DNA from: Octopus vulgaris
Lineage: Eukaryota
DNA: 64,000 bases
Assembly: GCA_951406725.2 (NCBI GenBank)
Contig: OX597830.1
Coordinates: 67,890,001 to 67,954,000 of the forward strand
Direction of reading: 5' to 3'
The stretch's first letter is position 1. Each line of letters starts with the position of its first letter. The notes beneath the pieces are model-generated. The model worked only from the letters and a program-made list of their open reading frames with translations, did not search any database and had not been told where the DNA came from. Positions 45,892-47,446 of this stretch are shown here, piece after piece. Made by a program: the position numbers and the translations under genes.

Positions 45892-47178
45892 CAAAGGAAT
45901 TCCAACTCTGTCTGTTTTTTACGTTTTACTTATATTCTTTATAATATTAATGTAGAATATAGAATACATAGTATAAATAGTATATATAGTAAAATGAAAT
46001 GAAGTATTGATTGTCTTATTGAATAGATGAAATACTGAACATCAAATATTAAGGGACTAGTATACTTTCTTGCATTTAAGCAGTTTTCAAGGTCCCAGGT
46101 TGTGACAGGAATGTTTCAACTGTACTTGACTGTCTGTCTTTTGTTCTTTATATACGTTCCTGTGGACAGCAGTAGTAGTTGCTTGGCTATTTTTAGAGAT
46201 GATGCCAAACCATTTTTCAGTGTTTATTCTTAGAAATGATGGCAGCAGAACTTTTTAGGGATTTTTATTTTTTAGGTATAGGAATAAGATTTTTAAACCT
46301 TAAATAAGATTAATTTAATCCTTGTTTATTAAGCTTCGGTTTGAATTTATTAATTTTCTCTCAGTTTTCTCTCGATTTTGTTCAGATTGTATAGTTTATG
46401 AAATGGAAATATCCTAAATGTTTTCCGACCACATGTTGCCAGATGGTTACGCAGTGGTATCTGACGGACTTCTGGATTTTTAATTTGTTGTCGATGCATA
46501 CGCGAGCGTTCTGATAGTGCATTGCCTGTCTGGCCAACGTACAGTTCTTCACAATTTGGGCATTTGATGCAGTAGATTAAATTTCTGCTTTTGCAGTTCA
46601 TGTTCACGTTTGAGAATATTTTCCCTGTTTTTGTGTTCATACATGGGCCAGTATGAATTAATTGGCATGTACCACATCAGCTATCATTGCATTTAGACAC
46701 AGTGAATGGTTGATCTTTGTTGCTAAGGTCAAACCTTGCCTTAGTTAATAACTTTTTCAAACTTTTAGGCTGTCTCTTGCTGAGAGTTATAGTTTGATCT
46801 GTAATGATATTTCTCAATTCCTTACTTTATGCAATGATTGGTAGGTTTGCTTTAGCGATATTGAAGATGTTCTAGTGGCATGGATTGTGTGTCACTATAA
46901 ATGGTATGATTTGTTCTTGTTTTTCTCTTCTTTGTGGTGTCCTCAGTTGTTGTATGGGTATTTTCATAGCCTGCTGAATACCATTTTCTATAAGTAGTTT
47001 TGTTTGAGCAGAAATTCTTTCAGTTCCATCAGGCACTGATTTTGAATATCGACTGATGGTTTATTTTAAAATCTATATTAAAGGAAGAAAAGAATTGAAA
47101 GAAGTCACGCTTACATCGAAGAGAAAAAGAATTGACAGTCTACTAAATAACGTATTTTCAGACGGAACTCAGTGGCAA
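3195..47178 (+). CDS. Partial multi-exon TRPM-like cation channel gene, N-terminal MHR/SLOG region: join(3195-3289,10526-10563,14342-14426,21087-21267,30329-30492,35103-35262,39390-39493,42320-42405,43975-44138,47084-47178). No start codon, transmembrane exons or stop codon were found in the window.
   Basis: All ten exons are bounded by AG/GT, intron phases are compatible (0,2,0,1,0,1,0,2,1) and the joined frame has no stops. TRPM motifs appear in family order: [32 protein letters not shown]...[52 protein letters not shown]. Confidence 0.88.
3735..6944 (-). CDS. LINE ORF2: AP endonuclease + reverse transcriptase
   Basis: LNVRG, LTETHL, YRPP, MGDFNLP, LDLVL, LSDH (APE); [25 protein letters not shown] (RT); VRPHLEY. 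Confidence 0.95.
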   Translation of the reverse strand: MYPPTKWQTKVVTLFFTDLPRKYEGRPKPGDPTSYQQPPMQITRTTHPLPTRKSYTHSSIQELPTLLPLNNLEQCKHQTSLTSTFLLNVRGINPSIIAQKWKIPYIESWLAETTHCFPFFILTETHLNNTHIDAEVKIKDFTIVRADRTNRNKGGTAIFIHDSFLLDAKDIFSNGYCESVSLFSKAKDIVIVGLYRPPQAPLKCFEECLSKVKSFLRKYHSGNILVMGDFNLPHVNWPTNTLKLGKCSTSDRAAAELLFNLMDEYFLTQLVLEPTRQNKTILDLVLTNHSSFVHSISVEKTLLSDHDMVLCNFNSRHIKTKPANPTPWHSFDNINFHKADWGAIRKDLSFIDWSFTLNSTHIETAWQHFENIVTYTWSKHAPTKSTNTNRNRLPKKKKTLIRRIKRLNKKINQLKYSHKQHPRSTTMKRLELEKLHLQNDMKTSIENQRAAEEQWVIKNIKQNPKVFYSYANKHRTPVSPIGPLIDANGIPQHDAKEMAEILQKQYCSVFSVPTDIDVRETNEVDSQHKIADITFTPTDIVAAINEVKYYSAVGPDRFPASLLKECKHQLAVPLTNLWRNSLDAGYIPRQFLSQSVIPVFKQGNRSLALNYRPISLTSHIIKVFERVLRSRMADFLETQKLLNANQHGFRCGRDCLTQFLHHIEDVLKALGTGSNSDVIYLDFSKAFDRVDHNILLSKLANVGIRGKVLHWIKYFLANRTQHVVVDGVHSSPAKVTSGVPQGTVLGPLLFIIYINDLSSVVHHCKVKIFADDTKLKQIVNEEADRTQLQSDLYAVSQWADRNKMQLNEGKFELMHFGRNSSLKQPYSLPSGEPLTASNNIRDMGVIVDDDLSWSAHINKKVDIARRMSSWILRTFRSREQGVIIPLFSSFVRPHLEYCCPLWSPHTRQNISRIESPQRALTKRIEGMAALDYWDRLKALKLYSLQRRRERYIICTMRKIYRQLCPNDLNISFKVHPRLGPRAIRPLPNSRSQHTCTLQHNFFSSTGPALFNIVPREIKEEKDPINFKQSLDRFLQRIPDKPPIIGYNSPNKNSLLEQNWIQLTQQELTT
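6892..8007 (-). CDS. LINE ORF1: Myb/SANT-like domain, Pro/Gln/Ser linker with 35-aa repeat, four CCCH zinc fingers. Probably ends at 6737 once a 1-nt indel is corrected.
   Basis: [15 protein letters not shown]...VYSKIAEKL...RSVKQIENK; four C..C..C-x3-H units; first ATG at 8007. Confidence 0.85.
   Translation of the reverse strand: MADNIQKRHWVENEITAMINAWYTHHNEANVYSKIAEKLAKQSFHRSVKQIENKTKEIVRIFPIIHTHMATLKAILVNECSAPNDPTPTGQGSLQRLDSQQQTSDLIPPIPQDSLSQQPVSATTSPVPDPIPPASSAVESQVSPTPQDSLPQQPVSATTSPVPDPIPPASPAVASQVSLLLQQQQHSAIEKSPIHPYQTPCLYYAQGNCKFGPSGNNNKGRCAFSHPTLCRRLVKGICPHGITGKNCPHLHPKYCPKYRIHGPDPKYGCTKGNRCTFFHPKLCQTSVSLRMCLNPECNHHHLKGTKRSQNIYKQQQRRSSTTIKATYNHVSPPTIKQRRRNHEKTITPNNTNMKYVSSDQVANQSGNSLFY
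7474..7686 (-). repeat. 105-bp in-frame tandem duplication in ORF1
   Basis: [30 protein letters not shown] occurs twice. Confidence 0.9.
8623..8661 (-). ncRNA. Minimal hammerhead ribozyme-like motif (variant core)
   Basis: Reverse complement: TCTTT CTGTTGA A GAGC GTAG GCTC GAAACGTT AAAGA. Palindromic AACGTT stem III as in Penelope-type minimal hammerheads. Confidence 0.55.
8911..8948 (-). ncRNA. Minimal type I hammerhead ribozyme-like motif (variant core)
   Basis: Reverse complement: CTGT CCGATGA ACG GCAA CGG GAA ACT CAG AGT A ACAG. Stem I CTGT/ACAG, GUA site. Confidence 0.55.
10526..10563 (+). CDS. TRPM-like micro-exon, start of MHR1
   Basis: Strong acceptor ttttttattttcag and donor gtaatt, 38 nt. 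Encodes [12 protein letters not shown](R), resembling the TRPM2/7 N-terminal WI..NI/F.KR segment. Phase fits both neighbours. Confidence 0.75.
11371..11590 (+). mobile_element. SINE, second family
   Basis: tRNA-like head followed by a ggtcgactttgcctttcatccttt...taagtaccag core. Degenerate relatives near 12770-12860 (-), 13040-13140 (-) and 29990-30070 (+). Confidence 0.65.
14342..14426 (+). CDS. TRPM-like exon, MHR1
   Basis: ttgatag|...|gtaatt. Encodes [28 protein letters not shown] (TRPM PTDAFG.I.F motif). Confidence 0.9.
17051..17165 (+). mobile_element. tRNA-derived SINE head, same family as 2740-3143
   Basis: aagtagcttgctt...ccacatggttccgggttcagtccca. Confidence 0.7.
17780..20735 (+). 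mobile_element. Degenerate RTE-like LINE
   Basis: GC-richer block with broken RT motifs (LYIAFIDLK...DTVD near 19690, RQGC near 19878) and many stops. Confidence 0.7.
21087..21267 (+). CDS. TRPM-like exon, MHR1/2 (SLOG)
   Basis: catatag|...|gtaaaa. Encodes [60 protein letters not shown]. Confidence 0.93.
21385..21582 (+). repeat. Second copy of the 342-545 repeat
   Basis: Direct sequence match; sits after (ACT)n(AAT)n. Confidence 0.75.
22828..25258 (+). mobile_element. R4/Dong-like non-LTR retrotransposon, degenerate and internally deleted
   Basis: [39 protein letters not shown] and [15 protein letters not shown] motifs, then a jump near 24950 to the endonuclease tail ([22 protein letters not shown]); (TAA)n tail. 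Confidence 0.8.
25259..26130 (+). mobile_element. Two short 5'-truncated R4/Dong-like 3' ends
   Basis: [17 protein letters not shown] and [15 protein letters not shown] (restriction-like endonuclease), each bounded by (TAA)n. Confidence 0.7.
26225..27945 (+). mobile_element. Another R4/Dong-like element, degenerate RT region
   Basis: [40 protein letters not shown]. Confidence 0.75.
27946..28490 (-). mobile_element. RTE-like AP endonuclease fragment
   Basis: STLNVG, CCIQEVR, AYAPQ, VGDFN.H.G, GFGSRN.E. Confidence 0.75.
30329..30492 (+). CDS. TRPM-like exon, MHR1/2 (SLOG)
   Basis: ttttgcag|...|gtaaat. Encodes (D)[54 protein letters not shown]. Confidence 0.93.
31566..32520 (+). mobile_element. 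Degenerate mariner transposon
   Basis: KAAETA.DINETF, VPHDL, VTVWW...GVIHYNF and ILHDNA motifs with stops; related to 39640-40735. Confidence 0.8.
32540..33263 (+). mobile_element. Helitron 3' fragment (PIF1-type helicase C-terminus, ORF 32696-33157)
   Basis: [32 protein letters not shown]...[15 protein letters not shown]. Ends in a small GC hairpin plus CTAG. Confidence 0.85.
33501..33569 (-). ncRNA. Mutated inverted copy of the hammerhead
   Basis: Core reads CTGATAA and the site reads GCC; probably inactive. Confidence 0.6.
33938..34006 (+). ncRNA. Type I hammerhead ribozyme
   Basis: TCCCA CTGATGA [AACTG...TAGTT] A GAA AC CATG GT C TGGGA. Intact core, GUC cleavage site after 34001, palindromic loop III. 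Confidence 0.8.
34349..34665 (+). mobile_element. Probable tRNA-derived SINE
   Basis: Degenerate A/B-box head (cttagtggctaag...gagatcgagtc) followed by tgtgtccttggacaagatacttt. Confidence 0.55.
35103..35262 (+). CDS. TRPM-like exon, MHR2
   Basis: tttccag|...|gtaagt. Encodes [53 protein letters not shown]. Confidence 0.95.
36054..37010 (-). mobile_element. RTE-like retroelement 3' region with internal ~66-bp tandem array (36234-36536) and (GAT)n tail
   Basis: 36600-37010 matches 51590-51840 in reverse. The terminal segment ctttccatgctggcatg recurs at 38840-39030, 45660-45835 and 9035-9140. Confidence 0.7.
37050..37900 (-). mobile_element. Degenerate Ty3/Gypsy-like gag fragment
   Basis: EEFSY.P.....F...[17 protein letters not shown] segment shared with 49400-50530. 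Confidence 0.6.
39390..39493 (+). CDS. TRPM-like exon, MHR2/3
   Basis: ttcccgacag|...|gtcagt. Encodes (K)[34 protein letters not shown]. Confidence 0.9.
39640..40735 (-). mobile_element. Degenerate mariner transposon
   Basis: KAAETV.D.NETFG, WVPH.L, EKWILY, VWW...[18 protein letters not shown]. Confidence 0.85.
40850..41930 (-). mobile_element. L1/Tx1-like LINE ORF2 C-terminal fragment
   Basis: W..R.VSLKGR, FLW.G, GGLG, CPRC....[10 protein letters not shown] zinc motif. Related fragment at 48300-49110. Confidence 0.75.
42320..42405 (+). CDS. TRPM-like exon, MHR3
   Basis: ttaacag|...|gtttgt. Encodes [28 protein letters not shown] (TRPM GSGRAAD motif). Confidence 0.9.
42724..42974. mobile_element. 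Mariner-derived MITE
   Basis: Ends TTAGGTTGGTGCA...TGCACCAACCTAA with flanking TA and extended palindromic arms. Confidence 0.88.
43975..44138 (+). CDS. TRPM-like exon, MHR3
   Basis: ttttcctag|...|gtaaga. Encodes [54 protein letters not shown]. Confidence 0.88.
46290..47030 (-). mobile_element. Penelope-like element 3' fragment (GIY-YIG endonuclease)
   Basis: [25 protein letters not shown]...R...H. Confidence 0.8.
47084..47178 (+). CDS. TRPM-like exon, diverged paralogue of exon 3195-3289
   Basis: aatctatattaaag|...|gtaaga, 95 nt, same length and phase as 3195-3289. Encodes [31 protein letters not shown]. Flanking introns are homologous to those of 3195-3289. Confidence 0.75.

Positions 47179-47446: not shown

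Follow-up and report, generated by a model that had tools for sequence, protein, structure and literature searches.

In the 64,000-nucleotide stretch of Octopus vulgaris DNA analysed here (the window, on contig OX597830.1, below C17, of a 2.8-Gb genome), the two exons at 3195-3289 and 47084-47178 have diverged from each other far more than the introns around them. Each closes a nine-exon TRPM N-terminal unit that is tandemly repeated in an Octopus gene family; the nine exons of a unit are lettered a to i, and the pair under study comprises the i exons of modules 2 and 3. As a rule, TRPM channels are conserved. We favour, with a probability of roughly 0.78, the reading that positive selection has driven the protein sequences of the pair apart, with introns drifting about neutrally, in this repeated TRPM sensor unit. 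The effect is not confined to the two exons, which are the strongest part of a cluster-wide pattern, and it likely represents toxin-gene-style positive selection in a normally conserved channel family. Across the copies, protein change runs at about 3-4 times the rate of silent sites and about 3-10 times that of introns. The identity of the exons, the repeats, the splicing of the module 3 exon, the intact frames and the excess of replacement over silent and intronic change at two depths are observed here directly.

The pair and its flanks map as follows.

3150..3194, plus strand: upstream flank of module 2 exon i, homologous to 47039-47083
3195..3289, plus strand: module 2 exon i, first helix pair of TRPM MHR3 with the WNR motif still recognisable; in Octopus models P0003, P0005 and P0006
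3290..3469, plus strand: downstream flank of module 2 exon i, homologous to 47179-47409
47039..47083, plus strand: upstream flank and acceptor of module 3 exon i, from alignment and RNA
47084..47178, plus strand: module 3 exon i, TRPM-invariant Trp lost; joint from 44138 to 47084 in 4 of 4 runs
47179..47409, plus strand: downstream flank of module 3 exon i; a TA microsatellite is expanded at about 47186-47233

The exon at 47084-47178 is therefore spliced in all four probable RNA runs, which come from three studies. The RNA nature of these runs was judged from spliced joints, as no run is recorded as RNA, and the gene copy of origin is not distinguishable.

A preliminary description of this DNA had counted by hand 46/95 identical nucleotides (nt) and 4/31 identical amino acids (L, D, L, W) between the two exons, and this ungapped count, together with the equal length and phase, was reproduced exactly. 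Specifically, each exon is 95 nt long with AG/GT borders, and the matches by codon position are 15, 14 and 16 of 31. Formal alignment of both regions also bore out the claim that the flanks are alignable, at an identity well above that of AT-rich background. Upstream, 33/45 nt are identical (73%, compared to 56±8% when shuffled; z 8.0); downstream, the figure is 135 of 175 aligned columns (77%, or 67% with gap columns, compared to 62±4% when shuffled; z 10.7). The contrast between exon and flank is strong (Fisher p 3.6e-6). In simulations, a gapped flank identity of 76% corresponded to a distance of 0.3-0.4, at which a neutral exon would retain 66-72 matches, and a value as low as 46 was reached in 0 of 150 runs per distance at all distances up to 0.5. 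The proposal that exon divergence exceeds intron divergence is thus upheld, and most of the divergence within the pair lies in the module 3 exon. Between modules 2 and 3 homology is lost at roughly -45 and +180 (past those points, z -0.9 and -3.8); between modules 1 and 3 it reaches about +950 downstream at 66%, and the flank is therefore not a short conserved island. The flanks of the remaining exons of the unit are equally alignable.

Each unit encodes a SLOG domain of TRPM type (MHR1/2), followed by the initial helix pair of MHR3. The SLOG profile PF18139 is present in the window exons and occurs 2-4 times per protein model, and 27 SLOG exons were found on C17, which also carries seven close copies of module 2 exon i (94-100%) and six of module 3 exon i (99-100%). 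Six channel loci on C17 are marked by MHR3/4 exons, and three of them (D, F1 and F2) carry a single unit. Module 5 is followed by a complete MHR3/4 (PF25508), which channels D, F1 and F2 have as well; after modules 1-4 only the first MHR3 helix pair is found, and a domain search of the protein models did not detect PF25508 in P0003-P0007. In the copy at 79.3-79.6 Mb the modules are collinear with a pore, the module 5 type following module 4, and models P0010 and P0012 link parts of module 4 with exons of both module 5 and the channel. The window's own gene combines exons a-e of module 1 with exons f-i of module 2 into a hybrid, and a search extending 100 kb beyond the window detected no channel exon for it. 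Both exons also occur in frame in models of O. bimaculoides and O. sinensis, which share these modules; modules 1, 2, 3 and 5 are 75-82% identical to O. bimaculoides proteins, and channels D and F1 93-94%. Nematostella TRPM2 (6co7) was matched in sequence (E 6.7e-57) and the TRPM N-terminus by the predicted fold of module 1 (Foldseek E ~1e-26). AlphaFold resolved module 1 alone, with a mean pLDDT of 55, and models exon i as two helices (residues 468-490).

The ratio of replacement to silent rates (dN/dS) among the module copies was estimated at two depths. On a tree of eight units, a maximum-likelihood codon model gave exon i a dN/dS of 2.74 for the five repeats and 0.26 for the three channels with a single unit; silent change in exon i ran at 1.06 times the rate of the other exons. 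Across codon models the exon i ratio in the repeats stayed at 2.6-3.0 (p 0.0006-0.003), far from values well below 1. The test in which silent and replacement rates are both free gave a likelihood-ratio statistic (LRT) of 9.0 (p 0.003). Under F3x4, exon i alone of seven exons fell below 0.05; under F1x4, exon f did so too (0.043). Robustness runs, in which the mutation spectrum was taken from introns, double hits were allowed at three times the intron rate or the less diverged module 4 copy was used, returned 2.8-3.0 (p 0.0006-0.002). A site mixture placed 35% of the codons of exons c-h at 3.2 (LRT 79), and exon i had the highest posterior. By branch, exon i evolved at 3.9 times the neutral rate in modules 3 and 4 and at 1.4 times in module 2.

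Among recent copies, tree-based maximum likelihood was dropped for its unstable optima and some negative likelihood ratios, and tree-free counts were therefore used, with expectations scaled to the flanks of each of 41 exon families. Families were defined by a 90% flank-identity rule, and exon f of modules 4 and 5, one mixed family, was counted once. Exon i showed 44 replacement changes compared to 9.4 expected (4.7-fold) and 4 silent changes compared to 3.6 (1.1-fold; binomial p 0.0009); without module 4 the counts were 26 replacement (7.8 expected) and 3 silent (2.9 expected). Its ratio, tree-based and tree-free alike, is about 3.3-4.2. Over all 41 families we counted 357 replacement changes for 127 expected and 63 silent changes for 44 expected, with replacement above expectation in 32 of them. 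The MHR3/4 exons (49 compared to 10) and, in a comparison of two copies of the module 5 channel, its membrane and C-terminal exons (30 compared to 12) also had an excess of replacements; the two pore exons of that channel had no clear one (4 compared to 3.5). The most extreme case in the cluster is exon h of module 4. In two copies whose flanks are about 2-3% apart, exon h differs at 39/191 nt and exon i at 18/95, and in three copies (L018:6514-6704, C17:79415330-79415513 and C17:67729267-67729449), again with flanks 2-3% apart, the first halves of exon h are almost unrelated. In conclusion, the acceleration is cluster-wide and peaks in exon i and its neighbour.

Several observations weigh against positive selection, or limit how far it reaches. 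The pair by itself is not significant (dN 1.2, dS 0.49, p 0.15), exon i was chosen for study since its divergence was conspicuous, and on its own best tree it gives 1.9 (p 0.03). The mean dN/dS of exons c-h, about 1.2, does not depart significantly from 1 (p 0.1). Silent changes run overall at 1.4 times the flank rate, and flank-based ratios are therefore too high. Among recent copies the overall ratio of module 3 lies near 1 (1.15, p 0.4), with just 4 replacement changes and 1 silent change in its exon i; the burst in this module is therefore old, and its exon i is identical to that of O. bimaculoides at 25/31 residues. Module 5 has MHR3/4 and a pore, yet a fast exon i, so that loss of partner helices is not the whole story. 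The copies recombine, as hybrid units and conflicting exon trees attest, and site tests may be inflated. Finally, six of the regions examined have a one- or two-base exon deletion, several of them in base runs, among them the window's gene, whose module 1 exon e (C17:67851572-67851746, upstream of the window) lacks one base in an A run; these short deletions may be assembly errors or decay.

Some of these points would fit relaxed constraint alone, in which the orphaned helices are neutral spacer or decaying copies and the AT-rich flanks simply align easily. The near-neutral average of exons c-h, the single-base deletions of several copies, the loss of the TRPM-invariant Trp in module 3 and the 56-62% at which even shuffled flanks align are all what it leads one to expect. 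However, neutral decay would leave about 70 matches in the pair in place of 46, and it predicts equal rates, not the 1.1-fold silent and 4.7-fold replacement counts of exon i. It also predicts stop codons, of which the 41 exon families contain none (9.6 expected), and frame and splice sites are kept in 22/22 aligned exon copies. We consider this explanation improbable.

The clustered changes and the many multi-base codon changes in exons g and h of module 4 suggest another origin, segment switching, by which exon tracts would be replaced en bloc from an unseen conversion donor or through paired one-base insertions and deletions, along the lines proposed for snake toxins under the name ASSET; on visual inspection, a few stretches can be interpreted as pairs of one-base shifts. 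Such replacement should raise silent change equally, whereas exon h of module 4 has 39 amino-acid changes and 2 pure silent ones. A genome search with the variable half of this exon found no donor (13 matches, 10 of them to the conserved half only). In exon i the changes are scattered along the whole length, and dN/dS barely moves when double hits are allowed. Segment switching has little to recommend it as the sole cause; it might act alongside selection.

The reverse possibility is that the introns are the anomaly, their flanks staying similar through splicing or editing elements or because gene conversion ends at the exon edges. Conversion is real in the cluster, exon f of modules 4 and 5 and its flanks being 94-95% alike. 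Among recent copies, changes within the 25 nt nearest to exons are at about 0.7 of expectation, the sole clearly slower stretch, and 39 changes compared to 54 expected lie within 200 nt of exon i; mild constraint close to exon i is possible. This slowing is too small to account for the gap between exon and flank. The flanks are mostly a neutral clock: over the ten pairs of modules 1-5 their distance (0.25-0.36) is on a par with the dS of exons c-h (0.21-0.36), and for modules 2 and 3 the flank distance is 0.28 and that dS 0.29, compared to an exon i dN of 0.87. Silent sites within exon i follow the flanks, and the homology between modules 1 and 3 extends far downstream. Exon plus flanks showed no folding excess over shuffles (z -0.5 and -1.2; distant pairing partners were not searched). 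The preliminary description had offered diversifying selection or constrained splicing or RNA-editing elements in the flanks. None of the three outcomes that it named as refuting was seen. The first reading is supported, with dN/dS above 1 both deep and recent, and the second is not supported as the cause, since the flanks do not go beyond the neutral rate and folding gave no duplex with the exon; anomalous introns as a whole are very unlikely to explain the pair.

A mutational bias, namely GC-biased conversion or genomically fixed RNA editing inflating dN, has next to no likelihood: on the exon sense strand A>G is raised more than T>C (3.6 compared to 2.3 times the flank rate), but all 12 change types are up, transversions included, weak-to-strong and strong-to-weak changes stand at 129:167 in exons and 278:432 in flanks, and exon i has 33-39% GC across all types.

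Returning to positive selection, tandem duplication would have severed the helices from the remaining MHR3/4, releasing a conserved TRPM motif, and selection would then have favoured new surfaces, fixing residues repeatedly after each duplication. Three drivers can be envisaged. The fast sites cover about one third of the unit plus the MHR3/4 and C-terminal channel exons, which tentatively makes an ongoing conflict at the cytoplasmic surface, with a protein partner or antagonist that keeps changing, the most likely of them. The rebuilding of unit-to-unit contacts is possible, if unlikely, and tuning to new small ligands is a little more doubtful. An explanation by which the helices were made soluble was unsupported, as the hydropathy of exon i has no consistent shift between repeats and channels. 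Module 3 exon i contains 9 GAA, compared to 5-7, a gain in purine-rich enhancer too small to judge. On a broader and distinctly speculative view, octopuses might have made a TRPM channel into a cytoplasmic sensor with several heads, as many as five SLOG units to a subunit; recombination within shared introns would shuffle these units between genes, and an arms race would diversify them at venom- or immune-gene rates. The result would be an animal counterpart of bacterial SLOG immune nucleotide sensing coupled to a pore.

In sequence and in the fold of module 1 the octopus unit resembles the TRPM N-terminus (PF18139 MHR1/2, i.e. LSDAT/SLOG, and the start of MHR3; 6co7, and TRPM7 MHR1-3, 8sib), and it shares its exon structure with the neighbouring full TRPM channels. 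Unlike known TRPM, it is repeated four to five times with no PF25508 region between repeats, and unlike conserved TRPM it has a dN/dS of 1 or more. PMC13143021 describes a single melastatin region, complete with its four parts in every TRPM member, as well as nucleotide binding by SLOG domains and ADP-ribose binding by MHR1/2 of TRPM2. Models of TRPM with two SLOG domains exist in oyster, jellyfish and other animals, and those carry PF25508; P0071, P0072, P0074 and P0075 (oyster, jellyfish and a sturgeon assembly flagged as contaminated) are TRPM-like with at least two SLOG domains, which may be real repeats or fused models.

Exons outrunning introns are known in venom genes, as described in PMC2474615 and PMC2711939. 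There, snake three-finger toxin and venom genes, ASSET included, form a tandem multigene family with introns more alike than exons and with short exon segments radically changed on a kept fold, as here. Unlike secreted venom toxins, the octopus case concerns a cytoplasmic ion-channel domain, repeated within and between genes. The octopus chemotactile receptors, according to PMC11526382, are likewise an octopus-expanded, channel-derived family with many positively selected sites; they are of acetylcholine-receptor origin with the selected sites in the ligand pocket, whereas in TRPM the fast sites extend across the unit, with a maximum in the helices that follow the SLOG core. Lineage-specific tandem clusters in molluscs, as here, are also found in the TRPM expansions of bivalves and vent gastropods (bioRxiv 10.1101/2024.05.23.594666); the sections consulted of that study report the fewest TRP genes in octopus and contain no mention of internal SLOG repeats or dN/dS. 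Our literature search, mainly of listings and the openings of abstracts, located no tandem SLOG units or positive selection for octopus TRPM, although supplements may bear on novelty, and in the main text of PMC13402157 the words SLOG, LSDAT and tandem do not occur. Within one cluster, then, a sister lineage has multiplied the sensor domain next to conserved single-unit neighbours (exon i dN/dS about 0.3). The pattern may mark an unstudied octopus-specific sensing or defence system, whose database entries are labelled 'uncharacterized' or are split gene models, and the cluster offers a testable set of paralogs, nearly identical and distinguished chiefly by a few surface helices.

The window contains ten exons from 3195 to 47178, that is, the end of one unit and the complete next unit. 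Besides the pair, the following were mapped.

10526..10563, plus strand: module 3 exon a, where the next unit begins, from protein models
14342..14426, plus strand: module 3 exon b
21087..21267, plus strand: module 3 exon c (SLOG)
30329..30492, plus strand: module 3 exon d (SLOG, PF18139)
35103..35262, plus strand: module 3 exon e (SLOG, PF18139), from domain match and RNA
39390..39493, plus strand: module 3 exon f, joint to 42320 in 4 of 4 runs
42320..42405, plus strand: module 3 exon g, from RNA
43975..44138, plus strand: module 3 exon h, likewise accelerated, from RNA
53263..53288, plus strand: 26-nt linker microexon between modules 3 and 4, AG/GT bounded, matching the linker of P0005 and P0003

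Exon a is open in a second frame too (10516-10572), which some database models use, skipping exon i; this is probably a prediction artefact. A search for PF23317 gave no match anywhere and is uninformative. Elsewhere on C17, one gene copy at about 44.49 Mb apparently goes from module 3 exon e to a module 5-type membrane-segment exon without f-i, and appears to be another hybrid. At 67.56-67.73 Mb a minus-strand module 5 channel lies between plus-strand module 4 exons f and g, either an inversion or a misassembly.

As to repeats, a dispersed one at 2992-3144 adjoins the upstream flank of module 2 exon i. The intron after 3195-3289 holds, on the minus strand at 3735-8037, an intact-looking element with a 1070-aa open reading frame and a 381-aa Cys/His-rich one, which we take to resemble a LINE (endonuclease plus reverse transcriptase). 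Further intron pieces at 31400-32520, 39895-40732, 58946-59987 and 32645-33157 are presumably mariner/Tc1 transposase- and helicase-like.

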